A stretch of DNA of 52,333 nt, taken from positions 1-52,333 of the IMG/VR virus record IMGVR_UViG_3300043446_000626; one strand, written 5' to 3'. Shown one piece after another: positions 1,507 to 42,415 of this stretch. Each line of letters opens with the position of its first letter. Positions within the stretch are counted from its first letter, which is position 1. This DNA comes from a virus. Taxonomy: Duplodnaviria > Caudoviricetes. The position numbers and the translations under genes are program-made. The notes beneath the pieces were generated by a model. The model worked only from the letters and a program-made list of their open reading frames with translations, was not told where the DNA came from and did not search any database.

Positions 1507-4484
1507 TGGCCAATGTATCCATCACCAACCTTCCTGCCGCGCAGCCCCTGACTGGCACCGAATTGGTGCCGGTTGTCCAAGATGGGCTCACTGTCCGGAC
1601 GACTACTTCTGCCATTGCGAACGCACCGGTTCAGACGCAGACCTTCCTGACGGTCAACAACGAGCCGACGCTTCCGAACAGCCGCTACTTCTCAACGGAT
1701 GCGAACTTCATCCTTTCTGATGGTGGGGCGCAGTCCTTCTTTCGCCTGAACCTGACCGGCGCCGCGGCAAGCCTTGCTGCTTCTGGCAATGGCATTCAGG
1801 TCAAGACGAGCAGCACCACCGTTACTGGCAGGACGCTGACTTCTGGAACTACAGGGCTTTCAATCGCCAACGGGGATGGAGTCTCTGGGAATCCGACCTT
1901 CTCTTTGACTGGGAATGTCCTGTCGCTTGCAAATGCCTCAGGAGCGGGTCTATTGGCCCTCTCAGGCCCTTCCGCGGTCACGTTCAGGGCAATCCAAGGT
2001 ACAGCCTCAGAAATCGACGTAGCGAACGGTACGGGCGCTTCTGCTGATCCGACCATTGGGTTGGCGGACAACCCGATCCTCCCTGGAACTGGTTCTACCA
2101 CCCTGCCGAAGGGGACTACGGCGCAGAGGTCTGCAGGCGTGACCGGCATGGTCCGCTATAACACCGATCTGGCGACGTTTGAAGGGTACACGCTGAGTGG
2201 GTGGAATCAGTTCGCCCTGACAGGTGGTGTGACTCTCATCAACACCGGCACTGGTTTGACGGGCGGCCCGATCACCACGACGGGGACGATTTCGATCGCC
2301 AACACGGGTGTGACGGCAGCGACCTATGGTTCGGCCACTGAAGTCGCGCAGATCGCTGTCAATGCACAGGGCCAGATCACCAGTGCGAGTAACGTCGCCA
2401 TCACCGCAAGTGGTATCGGGGCTGTGGCGTCTGTCTCTGGTACGGCCAACGAGATCACCGCGACGGGAACTACGAACGTCACGCTATCTTTGCCGTCGTC
2501 CTTGACCTTCACCGGCAAGACGGTCACCAACGGCACGTTCAACTCCCCGACCCTGGTCACCCCTGCGTTGGGTACCCCCACTTCGGGAACCTTGACCAAC
2601 GCCACGGGCCTTCCGATCTCCTCCGGCGTATCCGGCCTGGGGACGGGAGTTGCATCCGCCCTAGCAGTCAATGTAGGTGCTTCGGGTGCCTTTGTCGTCA
2701 ATGGCGGGGCGCTTGGGACTCCTTCGTCTGGAACTCTGACCAACACGACCGGCCTGCCCATTTCGACGGGTGTCTCTGGTCTGGGAACTGGCGTTGCCTC
2801 TGCTCTGGCTGTCAACGTCGGCACTGGCGGTTCGGTGGTGGTTAACGGAGGAGCCCTTGGAACTCCTTCCTCGGGTACTTTGACAAATGCCACGGGGCTT
2901 CCCATCTCCACAGGTGTGAGTGGTCTGGGAACCGGTATTGCGACCTTCCTGGCAACTCCGTCGAGCGCGAACCTTGCCGCCGCGGTCACGGACGAAACCG
3001 GCTCTGGCGCTCTGGTCTTCGGCACGAGTCCTACGATTGCTACGCCCGCGATCACGGGCGGGACCATCAACAACACGATCATCGGCGGGACGACACCGGC
3101 CGCGGGTACGTTCACTTCGGTGACGATGACCTCGGGCACGATCACCACGGCTCCGGTCAATGGAAACGACATCGTCAACAAGACCTACGCGGATTCGATC
3201 GCCACTGGCATCAACTTCCATCAGGCTTGCCGACTTGCCACCACGACGGCTCTTCCGTCCTGCACCTACAGCAACGGGGCTTCCGGTGTAGGCGCAACCC
3301 TGACAGCAACGGCGAATGGCGCCTTGTCGGTGGACAGCACGCTTGTTGCGGCTACCAACCGAATCCTGGTCAAGAACCAAGCCAGTCAGGCGCAGAACGG
3401 GGTCTACACGGTCACCCAAGCGGGTAACGGAAGCACTCCTTTCATCCTGACCCGCGCAACCGACTTTGATACTCCGGGAACCGGGGTCAATCAAATCGAT
3501 GCCGGTGACTTCTTCCTGATCACCGCAGGATCGACTCTAGCGAATACCTCCTGGGTGCAGCAAACACCGCTGCCGATCACGGTCGGAACCACGGCGATTG
3601 TCTTCTCGCAGTTCGGTGCTCCGCTGACTTATTCAGCCGGAACTGGACTAACTGAGTCTCCGGCCTACACCTTCAACATCGCCAACACTGGGGTGTCTTC
3701 CGGGTCTTACGGAAGTGCTTCTAGCGTTCCGGTGTTCTCGGTCAACGCCCAGGGTCAGATCACTACAGCGGTCAGCACTTCGATTGCGATTGCTGCATCT
3801 CAGGTGACTTCTGGGACGCTTGCAGTAGCCCAAGGTGGTACGAACATTGCCTCCTACGCCGTTGGAGACCTGCTCTACGCCACTGGGACTACGACGCTTT
3901 CCAAGTTGGCGATTGGCACGAACGGGCAGGTTCTGACCTCTTCCGGGACGGCCCCGCAGTATGTGAACCAGTCTAGCCTGTCGGTTGGATCGGCCACGAC
4001 TGCGACGAACCTCGCAGGAGGAACGACGGGCGCGTTGCCGTACCAGACTGGTGCAGGGGCAACGACCTTCCTGAGCCTGGGGACAGCAAACTTCGTCCTG
4101 ACGGCAGGAGCATCCGCGCCCCAATATGTGGCTCAAAGCACCCTTTCAGTGGGCGCTGCAACGAACATTTCAGGTGGCGCAGCAGGCTCATTGCCGTACA
4201 ACACGGGCTCTGGAGCGACAACCTTCCTAAGTCTTGGGACTTCCGGACAAGTATTGACTGCCGGGGCGAGTTCTCCTCAGTATGTCAATCAATCCACTCT
4301 TTCAGTTGGTTCTGCAACTAATGCAACGAACACGGCGATCACTGCGAACTCAACGAACGCCACAAACTATCTGACCTTCGTTTCTGCTACTACTGGAAAT
4401 CTTCCCCAGTTAGTAAACTCATCCATCACCTGTAACCCCAGTACAGGCCAGATTACTGGCGGCATCGCAGGTGGATCGTTCTGA
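1506..4484 (+). CDS. Long tail fibre protein (Gly/Thr/Ser/Ala-rich, internal repeats)
   Basis: 992 aa; N-terminal ITNLPAA..LTGTELVPVVQDG anchor; GTTAQR..GMVRYNTD..FEGY motif; RILVKNQ..QNGVY..LTRATDFD fibre module. Confidence 0.8.
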   Translation: MANVSITNLPAAQPLTGTELVPVVQDGLTVRTTTSAIANAPVQTQTFLTVNNEPTLPNSRYFSTDANFILSDGGAQSFFRLNLTGAAASLAASGNGIQVKTSSTTVTGRTLTSGTTGLSIANGDGVSGNPTFSLTGNVLSLANASGAGLLALSGPSAVTFRAIQGTASEIDVANGTGASADPTIGLADNPILPGTGSTTLPKGTTAQRSAGVTGMVRYNTDLATFEGYTLSGWNQFALTGGVTLINTGTGLTGGPITTTGTISIANTGVTAATYGSATEVAQIAVNAQGQITSASNVAITASGIGAVASVSGTANEITATGTTNVTLSLPSSLTFTGKTVTNGTFNSPTLVTPALGTPTSGTLTNATGLPISSGVSGLGTGVASALAVNVGASGAFVVNGGALGTPSSGTLTNTTGLPISTGVSGLGTGVASALAVNVGTGGSVVVNGGALGTPSSGTLTNATGLPISTGVSGLGTGIATFLATPSSANLAAAVTDETGSGALVFGTSPTIATPAITGGTINNTIIGGTTPAAGTFTSVTMTSGTITTAPVNGNDIVNKTYADSIATGINFHQACRLATTTALPSCTYSNGASGVGATLTATANGALSVDSTLVAATNRILVKNQASQAQNGVYTVTQAGNGSTPFILTRATDFDTPGTGVNQIDAGDFFLITAGSTLANTSWVQQTPLPITVGTTAIVFSQFGAPLTYSAGTGLTESPAYTFNIANTGVSSGSYGSASSVPVFSVNAQGQITTAVSTSIAIAASQVTSGTLAVAQGGTNIASYAVGDLLYATGTTTLSKLAIGTNGQVLTSSGTAPQYVNQSSLSVGSATTATNLAGGTTGALPYQTGAGATTFLSLGTANFVLTAGASAPQYVAQSTLSVGAATNISGGAAGSLPYNTGSGATTFLSLGTSGQVLTAGASSPQYVNQSTLSVGSATNATNTAITANSTNATNYLTFVSATTGNLPQLVNSSITCNPSTGQITGGIAGGSF
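2565..2960 (+). repeat. About three tandem 144-nt (48-aa) repeats in the tail fibre
   Basis: ALGTPSSGTLTNATGLPISTGVSGLGTGVASALAVNVG units begin at 2565, 2709 and 2853. Confidence 0.9.
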
Positions 4485-35579: not shown

Positions 35580-36143
35580 ATGCCACGGAAAGCCGCCAAA
35601 ACCGAGCCTTCAAAAGCCCCTGACCAAGGGGTAGATACCACCCAGGCCGCGGAAAAGCCCAGAAAGAAGACTGGGCGCCCTACAGACTACGACGAAGAGA
35701 TCGCTTCCGCTATATGCGTCCGTATCGCCAACGGACAGCCTCTAAGGCAAATATGCATGGAAGAAGGGATGCCAGTCCAATCGACGGTGTATGTTTGGTT
35801 GACTCGCTTCCCTGAGTTCGCGGAGATGTACACACGCGCCCGCGAAGATCAGGCCGATACTCTGGCTGACGAGATTCAGGCCATCGCGGACGAAACCCCG
35901 GAGATGAACCCGATCGTGGACAAGAACGGGGAACTGATCCGGATCGAGATGCACTCGGCCTACATCCAATGGCAGAAGAACCGGATCGACGCCCGCAAGT
36001 GGGTTGCGGCCAAACTGAAGCCCCGCAAGTATGGGGACAAGGTCCAGTTGTCCGGGGACGCCGAGAACCCGCTGAAGGTGGAAGCCGATGTGACCATCTT
36101 CGATACCGTCCTGAAGGGCATAGAGCAGTCCCGCCGTGGATGA
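35580..36143 (+). CDS. terS: Terminase small subunit
   Basis: GRPTDYDEEIA..ICVRIANGQPLRQIC HTH; YTRARE; RIDARKWVAAKLKPRKYGDK; upstream of TerL. Confidence 0.9.
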   Translation: MPRKAAKTEPSKAPDQGVDTTQAAEKPRKKTGRPTDYDEEIASAICVRIANGQPLRQICMEEGMPVQSTVYVWLTRFPEFAEMYTRAREDQADTLADEIQAIADETPEMNPIVDKNGELIRIEMHSAYIQWQKNRIDARKWVAAKLKPRKYGDKVQLSGDAENPLKVEADVTIFDTVLKGIEQSRRG

Positions 36144-38469
36144 ACTTGTCGCCGTCCTGAAGGACGAGGAGATCCGGGAGAAGTTCAAGCGCCTCCCGGC
36201 TGACAGACAAGCCGCCTTTGCCTGGAGGGCGGGATGGCTCACCAAGGCTCACAAGCACCAGATCCTGCCCGACGGGGACTGGTGGAGCATCTGGCTCCTC
36301 CTGGCCGGTCGTGGAGCCGGGAAGACCAGGACGGCTGCGGAGCAGATAGGTTGGTGGGCCTGGGAGCAGCCTGGAACCCGGTGGCTCGTTGCTGCTCCGA
36401 CCTCCGCGGACGTTCGGGCTACCTGTTTTGAGGGGGATTCTGGGCTGATTGCCGTGATCCCTCCTATTCTCATCGCCGACTACAACCGGGCGTACCACGA
36501 GATCAAACTCACCAACGGCTCACTTATTAAGGGCATCCCTGCGTCTGAGCCTGAGCGCTTTCGTGGTCCTCAATTCCACGGCGGGTGGCTAGATGAACTT
36601 GCGGCTTGGGACTATCTGCAAGAGGCTTGGGATCAGATCATGTTCGGCGTGCGCCTGGGCAAGCACACCCGCATTCTGGCCACGACGACTCCTAAGCCCA
36701 AGGACTTGATCATCGACCTCATCGGCCGGGATGGTGACGATGTACAGGTCACGACAGCGAGCACTTACTCCAACCTGGACAACCTTGCTCCGTCCTTTCA
36801 GAAGCAGATCCTGCAGTACGAGGGAACGAAACTCGGCCGCCAGGAGATCTACGCTGAGATCATTGATCCTGAGGAGGGGGGTATCGTCTCCCGTGACTGG
36901 TTCCGCCTCTGGCCTGCAGACAAGCCCATCCCTAAACTGGACTTCGTCGTCCAGTCCTACGACTGCGCCTTCACTGAGAAGGCCCAGAACGATCCGACGG
37001 CAGCCATCACCTTCGGGGTCTTCCGCCAGGAGGATGGCCCTGGAAGCGTCCTGATCATCGACTGTTGGCAGGACCGCCTGCAGTATCCCGACCTCCGGCC
37101 GAAGGTCATCGATGAGTACGAGACCGTCTTCGGAGAGGGCAAGGACAAGAAGCGGGTGGATCTGGTCCTGGTCGAGGACAAGGCCGCGGGCATTTCTCTG
37201 ATACAAGACCTGCAGAGAGCACACATCCCTGTCAGGGCCTACAACCCAGGCAGGGCGGACAAGGTCCAACGCCTGTCCATCGTGGCCAACATCATCCGAG
37301 CCGGAAGAGTCTGGGTGCCCGAGAGCAGCGTCAGGAAGGGCTACGTCCGTGACTGGGCGGAAGGGATGGTCTCTCAGGTCTGCTCCTTCCCCAACACCGA
37401 CCACGACGACTTCTGCGTGGCCGAGGGCTCGATGGTGCTGATGGCCAATGGCGATTTGAAACCGATTGAGTCTGTGCGGGTAGGCGACTTTGTCCAGACC
37501 CCTAACGGCGCTCGTCGCGTCACCGCCTTCCACGACAACGGCGTCAAGGAGGTTTGGCAAGTTCAGGCTGACGGTCGCCTGCTACTGGCAACCGGCAACC
37601 ACGAGGTCTTCACGGACAGTGGGTGGATGCGTGTTGATAGTTTGAGACAAGCAGTCCATAATCTTCTGATCATTGATCAGGAGGAAATATGCCGTTCCAA
37701 AAGAAGCCGGGGGTGGTCGTTGAGGTCATTGAGTTCAATGGCCGTAAGTACCGGCGCTATCCTGAAAGCCCAAATCCGGCGCATCGTCGGTACTTTGGTC
37801 GGGCAGGGCATCGGCTGCACCGGGATGTCTGGGAGTTCCATCACGGGCCGATTCCCGATGGGATGCACGTTCACCACATTGATGGCAACACCGCGAACAA
37901 CGACATCAGCAATCTTGAGTGCGTCACTCGTGATGCCCATTGGGACGAACATCGCGCAGAACATTCAAGGCGCGGGAAGGGCAAGGAACAGTTGGAGCAC
38001 TTGGAACATATCCGATCCAAGGCCTCTGAGTGGCACAAGTCAGAAGAAGGCCGAGCGTGGCATCGAGAGCACGCAAAGCGCAGTCTCTCCAAAGTATGGG
38101 GCAAGCCTCGGGAGTTTCCTGAACTCCGCCTTAAATGCGTTTGGTGCGGCGCGGACATGGTTGGCAAGATCGCTAGGAAGAAGTTCTGCGGACCAACCTG
38201 TCAAAACGCTGAGTCCAAGTTTCGCCTCGGCAAGTCTTGTACAGAACACCCATACCACGCGGCGCGTGTTCGACCTGACAGTGGAGGGTGAGCACTGCTA
38301 CTTTGCCAACGGCATCCTGGTCCACAACTGCGATGCCTTGTCTCAAGCGCTCCGATACTTGCGGGACGCAGGTTTCTTGAACATTGATCCAGAACCTGAC
38401 GATGGCCCTGACGAGGATGATTACGCCGACGCGGGGATGAGAAAGCGGGAGAATCCATATGCGTCTTGA
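36136..38469 (+). CDS. terL: Terminase large subunit precursor containing an intein (472 aa after splicing)
   Basis: Walker A AGRGAGKT, Walker B GWLDE, nuclease SYDCA and VEDKAAG; splicing restores HDDF-CDALSQAL. Confidence 0.95.
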   Translation: MDELVAVLKDEEIREKFKRLPADRQAAFAWRAGWLTKAHKHQILPDGDWWSIWLLLAGRGAGKTRTAAEQIGWWAWEQPGTRWLVAAPTSADVRATCFEGDSGLIAVIPPILIADYNRAYHEIKLTNGSLIKGIPASEPERFRGPQFHGGWLDELAAWDYLQEAWDQIMFGVRLGKHTRILATTTPKPKDLIIDLIGRDGDDVQVTTASTYSNLDNLAPSFQKQILQYEGTKLGRQEIYAEIIDPEEGGIVSRDWFRLWPADKPIPKLDFVVQSYDCAFTEKAQNDPTAAITFGVFRQEDGPGSVLIIDCWQDRLQYPDLRPKVIDEYETVFGEGKDKKRVDLVLVEDKAAGISLIQDLQRAHIPVRAYNPGRADKVQRLSIVANIIRAGRVWVPESSVRKGYVRDWAEGMVSQVCSFPNTDHDDFCVAEGSMVLMANGDLKPIESVRVGDFVQTPNGARRVTAFHDNGVKEVWQVQADGRLLLATGNHEVFTDSGWMRVDSLRQAVHNLLIIDQEEICRSKRSRGWSLRSLSSMAVSTGAILKAQIRRIVGTLVGQGIGCTGMSGSSITGRFPMGCTFTTLMATPRTTTSAILSASLVMPIGTNIAQNIQGAGRARNSWSTWNISDPRPLSGTSQKKAERGIESTQSAVSPKYGASLGSFLNSALNAFGAARTWLARSLGRSSADQPVKTLSPSFASASLVQNTHTTRRVFDLTVEGEHCYFANGILVHNCDALSQALRYLRDAGFLNIDPEPDDGPDEDDYADAGMRKRENPYAS
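37634..37688 (+). promoter_or_regulatory. Internal promoter and RBS-sequestering hairpin for the nested HNH gene
   Basis: TTGATA N17 CATAAT; hairpin CTTCTGATC-ATT-GATCAGGAG covering SD AGGAGG. Confidence 0.6.
37689..38291 (+). CDS. HNH homing endonuclease nested out of frame within the intein
   Basis: LHRDVWEFHHGPIPDGMHVHHIDGNTANNDISNLECVT HNH motif; C-terminal CVWC..FCGPTC zinc finger; SD AGGAGG. Confidence 0.9.
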   Translation: MPFQKKPGVVVEVIEFNGRKYRRYPESPNPAHRRYFGRAGHRLHRDVWEFHHGPIPDGMHVHHIDGNTANNDISNLECVTRDAHWDEHRAEHSRRGKGKEQLEHLEHIRSKASEWHKSEEGRAWHREHAKRSLSKVWGKPREFPELRLKCVWCGADMVGKIARKKFCGPTCQNAESKFRLGKSCTEHPYHAARVRPDSGG

Positions 38470-38683
38470 AGTTATGGTCGAGCCTTTGGACTCTAAGGAA
38501 CTCCCGGCTTACGAAGTCACAGTCAAGGTGACCCAGTGCCAGAACAGGTTTGAGATCATCGCCAAGCCTGGGGCAGAGATTGATTCCTGGCAGGTGCAGG
38601 CTTTACTGGCAAACTGGCTGAGATCCCGCGTAGACTCAGAAAAGACTGGTGGGCATAATCCATCATCTTCCGAGCGAGGGTAA
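38459..38683 (+). CDS. Hypothetical protein
   Basis: SD GGAG; fills the gap after terL. Confidence 0.55.
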   Translation: MRLEVMVEPLDSKELPAYEVTVKVTQCQNRFEIIAKPGAEIDSWQVQALLANWLRSRVDSEKTGGHNPSSSERG

Positions 38684-38686
38684 GCC

Positions 38687-41600
38687 ATGGCCGACTTTGG
38701 GCGACAACTGGCAGATTTGTTGTATGGGAACCAACAGCCTCAAGAGCGTCAAAAGATCGCCCGACTCCTAGAGTCTGACCGTTTGCGCCGTTTGGCCGGG
38801 ATTGGCGAGGCTGCTACGACCTTCGGCACCGGACTGGCCGCATCTGTCCCTGCGGGGCTTGCGGGGCTTTCCCAACTGATTCCCACCCGCGGTCGTGCGC
38901 CTGATGTCAACAAGGCCGCCCAGAGGGTTGAGGACGTTCAGGGTGCTCTGACCTACCTTCCCCGCACCGAGACGGGTCAGCGGGTTCTTGAAAAGGTTGC
39001 AGGGCCTCTGGAAATGCTCGGGGCTCCTGCTGAGTTCTTGGGCGAGAAGACGCTGCAGTACACCGGCTCCCCGGCTGCTGCCACTGCCGCAAACGTCCTT
39101 CTGGACCCGGTGAACTTCATCGGGATGCCTGGGAGTGGAAAGGCCGTGAAGGCCGCAGGAAGGGCCGCCATGGCCACTCCTCGTGTCGCTGCTGAGATGG
39201 TCGGTGACATCCTGGCCCCGAAGTCACGCTTTGAAAGCCAACGGGGCGCCATCAAAATGAAGGGCGGCAACTGGTTGGCCGGTGAGGTGGAGAAGTCGAT
39301 TGAGCCTCTTCGTGCCGGTAGCCGAGCAAGACCTCCTGAGCAGCAGTTGGCGGAGATGAGGGCGCAGTACACGCCTGAGGCTCTTGAAACCTTGCCTGAA
39401 GCACTGCGTGGCGGTGTTGATACTGCTTTTGAGGTTCTTGGTGAGCAATCCGCGCTCAATAACTGGATCGACAAGAAACTCACCCGCTACATCAAGAACG
39501 AGATGGCCACGCCGGAAGACCCGGTGCGGAAGTTGGCCGAGCAGGGCATCACGCATATGCAGGGCCTTGACCAGAACGTTGATTACGTCGGCTTCGGTTT
39601 GAAGAGAAGGCGCAGTGAGGCGGGGCTTCCTGAGGGTGGTTTGGGTGAATCTCAACTTGCCAAGAACTGGGAAGTAAAGGCTGACCAAGCAATCAATATC
39701 GAAAAGGCGGGCACCCTTAGCGATCCCAACCAATGGTTTGCTGAATCCGCGCCCGATCTTTCAAGACAACTTGAGACCAACCCTTGGCTTTCAAAACTCC
39801 CGCCAGAGACGCCGGTCTATGAGACTGCGGCGACTGCAGAGTATTTCCCTCGGATGCTTGGCTTCGACCACCTGATCGACGAACTGAGGAACTCCATTGA
39901 TGCCGCGTCCGACCTTCCTGCCCGTCTGCGGTGGAAGCCCGAGGATCTGGAGAAGGTCACGATCGAACAGGCCGTCAAGCGCGTCCACGACATCAACGAG
40001 TACCGCGCAGCGAAGAAGGCGGAGGCAAACGAGGCTCTGGCCCGCAACCCTGCGACGGTGGACTACAAGACCTACGAGACTGTTCCCGGTGGCACTGAGC
40101 CCAACAAGATGGGCTTGGCGTGGAAGGAGATCAAGGCTCCTGGGGAACTTCCAGAAGGTTTGACGGAAACGGTAAGCAAGAAGCACGCACGGAACCGTGC
40201 CGGTGAGTTGGTTGATGATCCTCGCTACAAGTCACTTGAGGACGCTCTCAAGTACGAAGGCGAAGTGATGGGTCACTGCGTCGGCGGCTACTGCAACGAT
40301 GTCCTGTCGGGCGAGACAAAAATCTACTCCCTGCGGGACAAGAAGGGCGAGCCTCATGTCACGATTGAGGTTGCTCCTCCCAAAAAATACTCCTACGAAG
40401 ATGTTTTGGATATGGACAAGGAGTACATATCTTCTCTTCGGCGCAACGGAGGCGAGGACAGCGTTTCTGATTATGTGAATGCGCGTCTAGATGAACTAGA
40501 CAGCGAGCCTTCGCAAATCATCCAGATCAAAGGCAAAGGTAACCGCGCCCCCAAGGAAGAGTATCTGCCGTTCGTGCAGGACTTTGTCCGCAGCGGCAAC
40601 TGGTCACGAGTTGGAGATATTCAGAACACGGGTATGAGGGCTGCTTCATCGGTGTTCAACGAGAACGAACTGAAGAGATTGCGCGATCTTGGAGAGACAA
40701 ACATTCCGGCCATCCTGTCGGGTGCAGATATTCAGCGCCTGCACAACCTCATCACGCCTGAAGGTAAGCGCCTGATATATGACGCTCGTGGCAACATCAT
40801 TGGCGATGAAGCCCGGAGAGGCTACGCAGACGGTGGAGAAGTCACCATCCCTGACATGACGGATGGCGGCAAGGTCATTGATGGCGGGGAGTTCAAGAAG
40901 GGCGGGAAGGTCCGCATCTCCGACAATCCTGACACGATGCGCCTGGAGTTGCAGGCAGGCGGGGCCGTGAAGGCTGCAGCGAAAGCGGCCGCAAAGGTTG
41001 CCAAGGAAGAGAAACTCTCCGTCCCCTACGACATCCCTCGTGCGCCTGCCAAGACGAAGGAAGAGATCCGGCCCATCGCTCAACGCATGGCCGAGCAGAT
41101 GACGGGTGAGTTCGTCCGCCCTGACCCGAAGGTCTCGAAGAACCCTGCAGGCAAGACCTATCAGCAGTTCCTCATGGAGCGTGAACTGGAAGGGCGTCAC
41201 CAGTACCGCCCAACCAAGGAAGTGCAGGAGCCTTCGGTCGCTGACATTGAGAAGCAAAAGGGCATGGTGAAGATGGGCGTCTCTGGCGACACCACCATGG
41301 CCGATGTAGAGTTGCTCCGCGCAGGCCCGTACCAATTGGGAGATCCGGCTCCCCTGCACGGAGGCCCGCGGTTCCCGTTGGGTGGTGAAGGCTCCTGGGC
41401 ATCCAACAACCCGATTGCAGCGAATGTGCAGCGCCGGGTGGGTGAGATATCTCAGTTCTTCGACGCGCCGGTCTTAGGTCAATACATGAGCATGGGTCCG
41501 TCTGGCTCTATGTTCGCGCAGCATCTGGCCGATGCCAACCTGCAGGCCATCGACCTGTCGAAGATGAGCAAGCGGCAGATCGAGCAGTTCAACAAGTTGA

Positions 41601-42415
41601 TCCGCGCCGGAGATGAGAAGTCTGGCCCCCGGCCTACGTTCCCTGGCATTCAGGACAAGGAAGAAGCCTACCTGTGGATGGCGTTCGATCCGAAGTTGCG
41701 GATTCACTTCAACAGCCTGATGCAGAAGCCTACGGTGACCGAGGCGCTGAACCTGCCTGATGGCCGAATCATCCTCGACGCCGTCACCGAGCCGGAGTTG
41801 CGGAACAAGGAGATCATGACCTCTGGTCTGTCTCAGTTCCAGTTCGATCCGAGCATCCGGCCGGAAGATCTCTCGCTTTCGATGCACCCGACCTACACGC
41901 ACCTGATCCCGATGAAGCAGGGCGCTCCGGTCACCCGTACTCGTTACCCGACCCCGGCAGAACTTGAGTTCTCCGATGTGGCCAACTTCATCCGCCAGAA
42001 CTACCCCGCCAAGGAGTTCACCCGCGTAATGCAGACCGGCAGCCCTCGCCAGTTGATCGATCAGCAAGCGATTGATGAGATCAAGATGTTCGAGGAGTTC
42101 ATGAAGCAGTACACCGGCAAGAAGAAGGGCGGGGCGGTGAAGATGCAGGCGGGTGGCGCCATCAAGGCTGCCGCAAAGGCCGTCAAGCCTACTGCCGAGC
42201 AAGCCGCACGTTTGGCTGCTTTGCGCGAGAAGATAGTTCCCCGCGGTGAACTGTCCAAGAAGATCATGGAAGAGAACCTCGACAAGCCTCTGAGCGAGAT
42301 CGAAGAGGGCGGCCTGACCAAGGCCCTGGAGGCTCTGCCCAAGAAAAAGGGCGGCAAGGTGAAGTTCACCGACAACCTCGACGCCATGCGACTGGCTGTC
42401 CAGAAGAGAAAGTAA
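38687..42415 (+). CDS. Large multidomain (polyvalent-like) protein with PcfJ-like domain
   Basis: LKYEGEVMGHCVGGYC..IYSLRD..PHVTIEV..QIKGKGN; modules separated by xxGGxV motifs. Confidence 0.65.
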   Translation: MADFGRQLADLLYGNQQPQERQKIARLLESDRLRRLAGIGEAATTFGTGLAASVPAGLAGLSQLIPTRGRAPDVNKAAQRVEDVQGALTYLPRTETGQRVLEKVAGPLEMLGAPAEFLGEKTLQYTGSPAAATAANVLLDPVNFIGMPGSGKAVKAAGRAAMATPRVAAEMVGDILAPKSRFESQRGAIKMKGGNWLAGEVEKSIEPLRAGSRARPPEQQLAEMRAQYTPEALETLPEALRGGVDTAFEVLGEQSALNNWIDKKLTRYIKNEMATPEDPVRKLAEQGITHMQGLDQNVDYVGFGLKRRRSEAGLPEGGLGESQLAKNWEVKADQAINIEKAGTLSDPNQWFAESAPDLSRQLETNPWLSKLPPETPVYETAATAEYFPRMLGFDHLIDELRNSIDAASDLPARLRWKPEDLEKVTIEQAVKRVHDINEYRAAKKAEANEALARNPATVDYKTYETVPGGTEPNKMGLAWKEIKAPGELPEGLTETVSKKHARNRAGELVDDPRYKSLEDALKYEGEVMGHCVGGYCNDVLSGETKIYSLRDKKGEPHVTIEVAPPKKYSYEDVLDMDKEYISSLRRNGGEDSVSDYVNARLDELDSEPSQIIQIKGKGNRAPKEEYLPFVQDFVRSGNWSRVGDIQNTGMRAASSVFNENELKRLRDLGETNIPAILSGADIQRLHNLITPEGKRLIYDARGNIIGDEARRGYADGGEVTIPDMTDGGKVIDGGEFKKGGKVRISDNPDTMRLELQAGGAVKAAAKAAAKVAKEEKLSVPYDIPRAPAKTKEEIRPIAQRMAEQMTGEFVRPDPKVSKNPAGKTYQQFLMERELEGRHQYRPTKEVQEPSVADIEKQKGMVKMGVSGDTTMADVELLRAGPYQLGDPAPLHGGPRFPLGGEGSWASNNPIAANVQRRVGEISQFFDAPVLGQYMSMGPSGSMFAQHLADANLQAIDLSKMSKRQIEQFNKLIRAGDEKSGPRPTFPGIQDKEEAYLWMAFDPKLRIHFNSLMQKPTVTEALNLPDGRIILDAVTEPELRNKEIMTSGLSQFQFDPSIRPEDLSLSMHPTYTHLIPMKQGAPVTRTRYPTPAELEFSDVANFIRQNYPAKEFTRVMQTGSPRQLIDQQAIDEIKMFEEFMKQYTGKKKGGAVKMQAGGAIKAAAKAVKPTAEQAARLAALREKIVPRGELSKKIMEENLDKPLSEIEEGGLTKALEALPKKKGGKVKFTDNLDAMRLAVQKRK

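Follow-up and report, generated by a model that had tools for sequence, protein, structure and literature searches.

Genes for homing nucleases can lie hidden within the coding sequence of another phage gene, and three described systems come close to the one that we report here. Gosselin, Arsenault, and Gogarten (2025; bioRxiv 10.1101/2025.01.02.630785) describe, in the text of their preprint, inteins of actinophages that contain a nuclease of the endonuclease VII-like type "in reading frame 3 relative to the intein"; in their model a free-standing nuclease gene invades an intein, and such inteins may be far more common than reported. Inteins with an HNH nuclease in frame are also attested in that text. 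Arsenault et al. (2025; PMC11855218) report ShiLan-type out-of-frame HNH genes hidden in insertions in mycobacteriophage DNA methylases, and Dassa et al. (2009; PMC2677866) report fractured genes in which split inteins surround GIY-YIG or Vsr-like nuclease genes, HNH nucleases being only predicted in their account. Here we describe a nested HNH gene in the large terminase subunit gene (terL) of IMG/VR virus record IMGVR_UViG_3300043446_000626. This record, all 52,333 bp of which were analyzed and which we call the window, is a metagenome-assembled but complete virus with direct terminal repeats and a CheckV completeness of 100%. We consider it highly probable that its terL holds a composite mobile element, a class-1-type intein in whose endonuclease slot a nested HNH gene lies in the -1 frame and is translated independently.

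The inteins of Gosselin et al. are like that of the window in that, as far as the preprint text describes them, the splicing blocks flank a nuclease open reading frame (ORF) that is on their strand and has the offset seen in the window, the in-frame reading has no recognizable fold, and the large terminase subunit is among the hosts. They differ in nuclease type, which is endonuclease VII-like (IPR004211) there and HNH_3, with zinc ribbons and an EWHxSEEG motif, in the window, and in that the hosts found here extend far beyond actinophages; frame-specific substitution patterns and stop-avoidance statistics are our additions to what that text offers. The ShiLan insertions, in their published account, share with the window an HNH gene nested out of frame, a stop-free host frame, and a deduced capacity for homing. 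However, they are without a splicing domain, are thought to be retained as a loop, and had no ribosome-binding site that could be found, whereas the insert in the window is a complete intein, which should remove the junk peptide, and AGGAGG stands ahead of the nuclease start. In the fractured genes of Dassa et al., as described, the nuclease gene likewise lies between the intein parts and overlaps the downstream part, an arrangement matched exactly by Vibrio phage 1.245.O (see below). The window host, in contrast, is one uninterrupted 777-codon ORF, and from this unbroken frame it follows that the intein is contiguous and would splice in cis. Canonical HNH inteins also combine a Hint domain with an HNH nuclease that occupies the customary site of endonuclease insertion, with a core that resembles I-HmuI (PDB 1U3E), although I-HmuI itself is intron-encoded; in the window, unlike in these inteins, the nuclease lies outside the intein polypeptide. 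A canonical bifunctional intein, with an in-frame endonuclease domain, is therefore not what the window encodes. The concept of a nested out-of-frame nuclease is already published, in two works of 2025 from one laboratory, so far as their texts go. Hence the novelty of the arrangement, which a preliminary description of this locus made from the sequence alone had thought possible, does not hold: the preprint text has it for another nuclease type, together with the same evolutionary model. What appear to be unreported are the HNH_3 family, its breadth, its long-lived stability, and its connection with a split terminase intein that bears an HNH gene. The words "TJE1" and "Tetrasphaera," which name one of the phages discussed below, do not occur in the main text of the preprint, although its supplements may list this or related cases.

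The anatomy of the locus agrees with the preliminary description on every point (Table 1). The TerL ORF, from the phage's only large-terminase gene, matches the Pfam families Terminase_6N (E 4e-24), Terminase_6C (E 1e-6), and Intein_splicing as well as Hint models, and the intein, which comprises TerL residues 427 to 731, has the expected Cys1, TxxH, block F, and HN/Cys+1 elements. Its middle had been described as Ser/Thr/Gly-rich and without a nuclease motif; the TerL-frame translation indeed has no match to a Pfam nuclease family, and the composition of this part agrees (16.6% Ser, 10.7% Ala, 10.2% Gly, and 9.6% Thr). The nuclease is encoded instead by a separate gene that overlaps the intact intein in another frame, its codons beginning one base ahead of the TerL codons (the -1 frame, which is the same as +2 or "frame 3"). 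Both frames are open over 615 nucleotides (nt), from 37677 to 38291, where about 600 nt had been estimated. The HNH ORF matches HNH_3 (PF13392) with an E value of 5.9e-18 and 64.7 bits (cutoff, 24.8) and PHROG 15471 with an E value of 3e-20, while no Pfam family other than HNH_3, Endonuclease_7 included, matches the protein at E values up to 0.1. The gene has its own AGGAGG, a zinc finger, and a TGA stop at 38289 to 38291, inside block F and 13 codons before the intein ends.

The residues required of an intein are conserved well beyond the window. Intein boundaries are common to 26 aligned host ORFs from the family described below, all of which have Cys as the first intein residue (37414 to 37416 in the window) and Asn as the last; His precedes this Asn in 18, Ser in 7, and Ala in 1, and the +1 residue is Cys in 25 and Ser in 1. 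The window intein itself ends in ...LVHN, followed by Cys+1. Within block B (TGNH), T486 and H489 of TerL are invariant columns, and across 22 aligned inteins C1, T60, H63, and N305 are invariant and the C-terminal region is also conserved. As the splicing residues are conserved and the only terL of viable cultured phages holds the insert, the window intein probably splices.

A wider search showed that the arrangement is not a one-off. A tblastn search with the HNH protein found matches inside terL of Tetrasphaera phage TJE1, Acinetobacter phage Highwayman, Rhodobacteraceae phage LS06-2018-MD07, and Clostridium phage phiCDHM19, in whose GenBank records only "terminase large subunit" is annotated over the HNH gene, and under an ORF annotated "hypothetical protein" in Clostridium phage phi CD119. 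All five have the HNH ORF at the same +2 offset and an open host frame. The 2005 record of phi CD119 (L006; AY855346, 778 to 2595) splits terL into ter2 followed by ORF3, and its HNH ORF is shorter at the 5' end; in phiCDHM19, a close relative, the same region is a single gene of 800 codons that contains the intein, and the breaks in L006 could be sequencing errors or real. Scanning IMG/VR with the HNH protein yielded 80 loci, in 72 of which the HNH gene lies within a long ORF at the same offset, the other 8 being not nested; another frame offset was found at none of the 80. Clustering at 70% HNH identity gave 37 clusters, 30 nested and 7 free-standing, and BLAST of the N-exteins gave five groups. 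The nested state thus occurs, always with the same offset, in at least 30 lineages that share less than 70% HNH identity and that span at least five N-extein families of the terminase. Among 26 host ORFs, Intein_splicing was matched by 23, Terminase_6N by 13, and Terminase_3 by 7, and none had HNH_3 in the host frame. The HNH profile family comprises about 1,100 representative clusters at an E value of 1e-30 or better. Nested copies reach beyond actinophages to Clostridioides, Acinetobacter, and Rhodobacteraceae phages and freshwater viral contigs, a Vibrio phage also belongs to the family, and the phages of the family thus span Firmicutes, Proteobacteria, and Actinobacteria. A tblastn search with the TJE1 copy matched 455 phage records, whose ten commonest names include no actinophage host genus; the rows covered one by one were the best 40. 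One subfamily (L053, L061, L065, L066, and also L043) has nested HNH proteins with an extra N-terminal extension of about 55 residues that carries a CPTCGG-type zinc-ribbon motif; its inteins end in ...NGAIVHN, and its terminases form a separate N-extein group.

Two compensating insertions or deletions in sequencing or assembly could in principle have shifted a normally in-frame HNH domain, and the window is, after all, metagenome-assembled, with two reproducing contigs that may share its sample. These contigs, of 29 kb and 3.3 kb and from two runs, reproduce positions 37300 to 38500 with no differences and no gaps, and identical 151-mers from inside the HNH gene occur in runs of two other studies. 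The read evidence consists of Logan contigs, which show presence and the lack of insertions and deletions, not minority variants. One contig of depth 2, from run X2, has an extra nucleotide at 38261, lacks one at 38265, and was treated as a diverged relative or an error. Against an artefact stand the recurrence of the same offset in independent viral-contig loci and in GenBank records that include cultured phages, the HNH-frame stops directly upstream of the ATG, the HNH stop inside block F, the change of frame in the substitution periodicity at the overlap borders (see below), and the fact that an in-frame form was not found among the proteins searched. The compensating frameshift errors that the preliminary description had proposed as a possible refutation are excluded by the gap-free contigs and by the shared offset of 72 of 80 loci, and we give an artefact of this kind a negligible probability.

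The start of the nested gene also appears to be its own. Because its frame is closed by stops at 37659 and 37674, the HNH protein cannot extend further at its N-terminus. An ATG or GTG lies just upstream of the conserved N-terminus in all 29 nested representatives that are uncut by a contig end, mostly close behind an HNH-frame stop, and in the alignment the free-standing homologues begin at the same position as the nested proteins. The AGGAGG of the window, a Shine-Dalgarno (SD) sequence, is also present in its relatives L007 to L011, and a loose pattern finds an SD-like match in 13 of the 30 nested lineage representatives, most clearly in L005, L022, L057, and L004. An alternative to internal initiation is a programmed -1 ribosomal frameshift near 37690, which would make the nuclease as a fusion to the intein N part or the N-extein. 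Such a mechanism would suit an HNH gene that is always in the -1 frame, and the SD-like AGGAGG does lie upstream of an A-rich run, CCAAAAG (37697 to 37703). However, inspection by eye, with no formal scan, did not reveal a canonical slippery heptamer (X XXY YYZ) there in the terL frame, and the separate starts of the 29 uncut representatives, at the same place as those of the free-standing homologues, leave frameshifting highly improbable.

Frame-specific patterns of selection were observed over the overlap. Across the HNH gene the host frame contains no stop in any of the 30 nested lineage representatives, whereas the corresponding frame contains 3 to 13 stops in all 7 free-standing representatives and 14 in the split Vibrio-phage version. 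By synonymous-codon shuffling of the HNH ORF the median P for the nested representatives is 0.011; it is about 2e-4 for Highwayman and 3.5e-4 for phiCDHM19, both A+T-rich copies, and for L002 an open frame arose in 0 of 3,000 shuffles (2e-4 with 20,000). The proposal that the intein frame has been kept stop-free is thus upheld. Differences between the window and its relatives L007 to L009 (about 80% HNH identity) and L010 and L011 (75%) were counted by TerL codon position. For positions 1/2/3, comparison with L010 gives 91/64/232 in the N-extein, 30/20/57 in the intein N part, 34/106/46 in the HNH overlap (p 4e-11), and 2/4/9 in the intein C part; the overlap differences against L007 to L011, 16/52/25 and 34/106/46, fall on HNH third positions. 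As TerL position 2 is HNH position 3, the periodicity switches to the HNH frame over the overlap and back at block F, and the TerL position at which every change is nonsynonymous is the one that changes most in the linker. When the most divergent pair from each of six clusters is taken and the counts are summed, differences by HNH position in the HNH core are 95/60/219 (p 5e-25), and those in the exteins of these pairs, by host position, are 65/41/261. The only insertions or deletions seen in the overlap are of 12 nt and 6 nt. This switch in periodicity indicates that HNH is the selected frame and that the intein frame is just kept open. Hence the frame-specific comparison called for in the preliminary description shows purifying selection on the HNH frame, and the TerL-frame middle is constrained only against stop codons and not on its residues.

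These patterns also bear on whether the nested gene could be a dead relic, a passenger that is open by chance in a de facto mini-intein. Decay does occur in the family. In L023 (2962 to 3270) the nested HNH ORF is truncated to 102 codons, compared with 195 in L019 to L021, while the 1113-codon host frame is open, apparently a decaying nuclease within an intact intein, and L075 has a broken HNH copy. The window ORF, in contrast, is complete with SD and ATG, the third-position bias of its differences is seen both against L007 to L011 and in the six clusters, and the catalytic and zinc-binding residues and the EWHxSEEG motif are invariant in 32 proteins. A relic is accordingly very unlikely.

The alignment of these 32 HNH proteins, which are 33 to 81% identical to that of the window, has H44, H63, N71, and N75 as invariant residues and H62 and H84 conserved in at least 90%; we take the catalytic roles of these His and Asn residues, in a beta-beta-alpha-metal motif, to be those of HNH enzymes in general. 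C150, C153, and C167 of a Cys-rich zinc ribbon are invariant too, as is the EWHxSEEG motif. A model built from this alignment has a mean predicted local distance difference test (pLDDT) score of 88.3 (at least 90 for 145 of the 200 residues) and is least confident over the last 18 codons, which overlap block F. Among solved structures the closest to it is that of I-HmuI, a homing enzyme encoded in an intron (profile E 2.8e-4), on which it superimposes (1u3e, VIA-align) with a Z score of 7.6 and a root mean square deviation of 2.9 Å over 73 residues (next hit, 4.9). The nested protein as modeled thus resembles an HNH_3 enzyme of the I-HmuI-like homing type. The model of the intein frame, from a 22-sequence alignment, has block-mean pLDDT scores of 76 to 96 over residues 1 to 90 and of 92 to 96 over the last 30, and scores below 50 at residues 98 to 118 and 120 to 265. 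Its confident parts match the Ssp DnaB and Mtu RecA mini-inteins (Foldseek E 2e-6 to 5e-6; template modeling score on the target, 0.7 to 0.8), in agreement with a predicted Hint fold. In these models, therefore, the intein frame and the HNH frame alternate as structured protein along the shared DNA.

The distribution of the element is compatible with mobility. The insertion point is the same in the 26 aligned host ORFs; it lies in the nuclease domain of the terminase, where it follows a D/H-rich motif and mostly precedes C-D-A or a close variant, and presence/absence polymorphism is observed at the exact junction. Three contig records from another study's metagenome, about 87% identical to the N-extein end, have ...DF joined straight to CDALSQALRYL. 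The closest GenBank relative, MW202545, has an intein-less TerL of 494 amino acids (aa) with an N-extein 70% identical, and no HNH homologue was found in its 57-kb genome; this empty result is weak alone and has as its positive control the same search of the window's own genome, which finds the gene. One strongly supported HNH clade spans two terminase N-extein groups. Site-specific cleavage and homing by the HNH protein would account for these observations and are, in our view, probable.

A free-standing origin for the nested gene, as proposed in the preliminary description, is plausible in that homologues adjoin intein-less terminase genes, between terL and the portal gene in L012 and upstream of terS in BP10. 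In IMG/VR contig L012 (1366 to 3567) an intein-less terL (532 aa, ...KHDDLVDCVVYA...) is followed by the free-standing HNH gene and then by the portal gene; this HNH protein is 48% identical to that of the window, and in its gene the frame that nested copies keep open contains only 3 stops, a lower number than in most free-standing relatives. Protein P0239 of the representative library (472 aa) has an HNH domain at residues 27 to 190 fused to the N-terminal part of a P22-like portal and may represent either a read-through or the miscalling of a free-standing copy located between these two genes, terL and portal. HNH proteins that adjoin terminase genes in cos phages have a packaging role. It could be, then, that the nested protein is a non-selfish packaging helper that acts with the terminase and is nested for co-expression with terL, a reading with which the terminase-adjoining copies of BP10 and L012 and the portal fusion are compatible. 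Its resemblance to homing enzymes, with no second Pfam family detected, its patchy presence tied to the intein, the lack of a detected homologue in the closest intein-less relative, and the tolerance of decayed copies all speak against such a role, which we think quite unlikely.

The gene is found in three states within one family: free-standing, nested, and split. The split version is that of Vibrio phage 1.245.O (L089; NC_055736, 2000 to 3400), in which the N part of terL together with the intein N part stops at 2535 to 2537, the HNH ORF runs from 2423 to 3133 at the same +2 offset, and the intein C part and the C-extein form a separate ORF at 3060 to 3389 in the original frame. The old linker frame contains 14 stops, so that the split Vibrio phage provides a natural control in which the stop-free constraint has been lifted. 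The terL of this phage also holds an additional, earlier intein.

The preliminary description saw in the window a possible intermediate in the assembly of inteins with their endonucleases. The in-frame product of such an assembly was looked for in several ways. PF13392 was in frame in none of the 120 terminase matches to the intein listed, and no in-frame fusion was found among 208 longer candidate proteins, which is weak evidence. Among the best 150 of 49,962 family members there was no terminase-sized or Hint-bearing protein, as judged by length and, for five, by Pfam: 148 have at most 380 aa, and an HNH repeat protein and the HNH-portal fusion exceed this length. The Pfam-checked five, which were these two, two of the longest others, and the top match, had no Hint or terminase domain. 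These searches yielded no in-frame form and so lend no support to a transient intermediate; the one derived state that is seen is the split intein. The claim of a novel transitional intermediate is further weakened because the class has already been described and the arrangement is stable and widespread. We suggest, tentatively and with slightly less than even confidence, that the out-of-frame state is no stepping stone but the form that is stable and preferred in a very large and old family of mobile elements that target the terminase.

Several points weigh against the interpretation of the window as a composite homing element. We infer translation of the HNH gene by internal initiation, splicing, cleavage specificity, and homing from sequences and models. 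The open TerL frame of the window is unremarkable alone (P = 0.18 by shuffling, at 57% G+C), and the stop avoidance is significant because of the whole family. The loose pattern found no SD-like match in 17 of the 30 nested lineage representatives, so internal initiation may differ there. A Foldseek search of PDB with the HNH model was weak, with I-HmuI at an E value of 0.07 and no hit reaching 0.001. Both full-length contigs are probably from the source sample and hence are not independent. Finally, resolution in the HNH tree is poor, strong support being limited to 4 of its 33 inner branches, so that the direction from free-standing to nested and the number of transfers are unreadable; changes between free-standing and nested states number 4 on this tree, and the strongly supported branches force only 1.

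Given the composite element that we favor, a ribosome on terL would read through the HNH DNA and make an unstructured, stop-free linker of about 170 to 190 residues between blocks B and F. The Hint domain would fold around this linker, excise itself, and join ...HDDF to CDAL..., which would restore the nuclease-domain motif and yield a 472-aa terminase. Separate initiation at the internal AGGAGG and ATG (37679/37689) would produce the 200-aa I-HmuI-like HNH enzyme with its C-terminal Cys4 zinc ribbon. In a mixed infection this enzyme may cut or nick an intein-less terL at or near the HDDF/CDAL site, and repair would then copy the intein and the nuclease gene as one unit.

Two further features near the start of the nested gene are listed in Table 1. 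A scan of 3.4 kb for promoters and terminators gave 2 promoter-like sites versus 1.2 expected, which is nonsignificant, and no terminators. The hexamers of the putative promoter are identical in L007 to L011, yet the same stretch encodes intein residues, and the site is suggestive by position only. The hairpin that would pair with the HNH SD has a nonsignificant z-score of -0.92; one change in L007 to L009 keeps a G-U pair, and conservation of the hairpin does not extend to L010 and L011. A transcript begun past the -10 box of the putative promoter would miss the 5' arm of the hairpin. Control by such pairing would be similar to that of some nuclease genes of phage T4. Both features are leads only, without statistical support. 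Downstream of terL, a 1242-codon ORF (38687 to 42415) occupies the place expected for the portal gene; its PHROG matches are two of unknown function only, at residues 519 to 636, and it contains repeated Lys/Gly/Ala-rich segments (KKGGKV..., AGGA[IV]KAAAKA).

Table 1. Positions in the window of the terminase genes, the intein, and the nested nuclease gene with its putative signals
Feature	Position	Strand	Basis or remark
Small-terminase gene	35580-36143		Upstream of large terminase; PHROG 1482
Large terminase subunit gene (terL), 777-codon precursor including intein	36136-38469	+	Single ORF
N-extein, ending ...TDHDDF in nuclease-domain motif	36136-37413	+	Alignment with intein-less TerL ends there
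Intein, 305 codons, Cys1 to His-Asn, then Cys+1	37414-38328	+	Pfam Intein_splicing, Vint, Hom_end_hint
Intein N-terminal splicing region, blocks A and B	37414-37704	+	Block B His codon at 37600-37602
Putative promoter-like site, TTGATA-17-CATAAT	37634-37662	+	10 of 12 consensus matches
Two HNH-frame stops closing the frame upstream of the ATG (37659-37661 and 37674-37676)	37659-37676	+	Frame-by-frame stop list
Putative 10-bp hairpin pairing the HNH SD (candidate translational control)	37662-37684	+	Minimum-free-energy fold of 37640-37740
SD sequence AGGAGG, 4 nt ahead of HNH ATG	37679-37684	+	Read from sequence
Nested HNH homing-endonuclease gene, 200 codons and TGA	37689-38291	+	-1 frame of terL
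Intein linker, TerL-frame read-through of the HNH gene	37705-38208	+	Stop-free; no predicted fold
Intein C-terminal splicing region, blocks F and G	38236-38328	+	...VFDLTVEGEHCYFANGILVHN at end
C-extein (CDALSQALRYL...) and stop codon	38329-38469	+	Aligns with C-terminus of intein-less TerL

The arrangement has consequences for annotation, application, and evolution. Overlapping genes of this kind are missed by standard pipelines, and the inteins that carry them will be misfiled as mini or decaying. The linker suggests that the Hint domain tolerates about 170 to 190 arbitrary residues at the endonuclease site, and the split relatives may supply new trans-splicing intein pairs. For the evolution of overlapping genes, the locus appears to be an unusually clean case of two frames that are each constrained only where their own protein is structured, the passenger frame being held only against stop codons. 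As free-standing, nested, and split states coexist in one family, models of how inteins gain nucleases and how split inteins originate become experimentally testable. If the out-of-frame state is indeed the stable form, the timing and dose of the nuclease would be independent of the terminase through its own SD, and perhaps through an internal promoter and an SD-masking hairpin, while the intein would remove the junk linker from an essential protein. The series from a free-standing gene beside an intein-less terL through the nested to the split state would then make the "gene-breaking" and "splicing-first" models testable, and many phage inteins that are catalogued as "mini" or "decaying" would carry hidden working nucleases.

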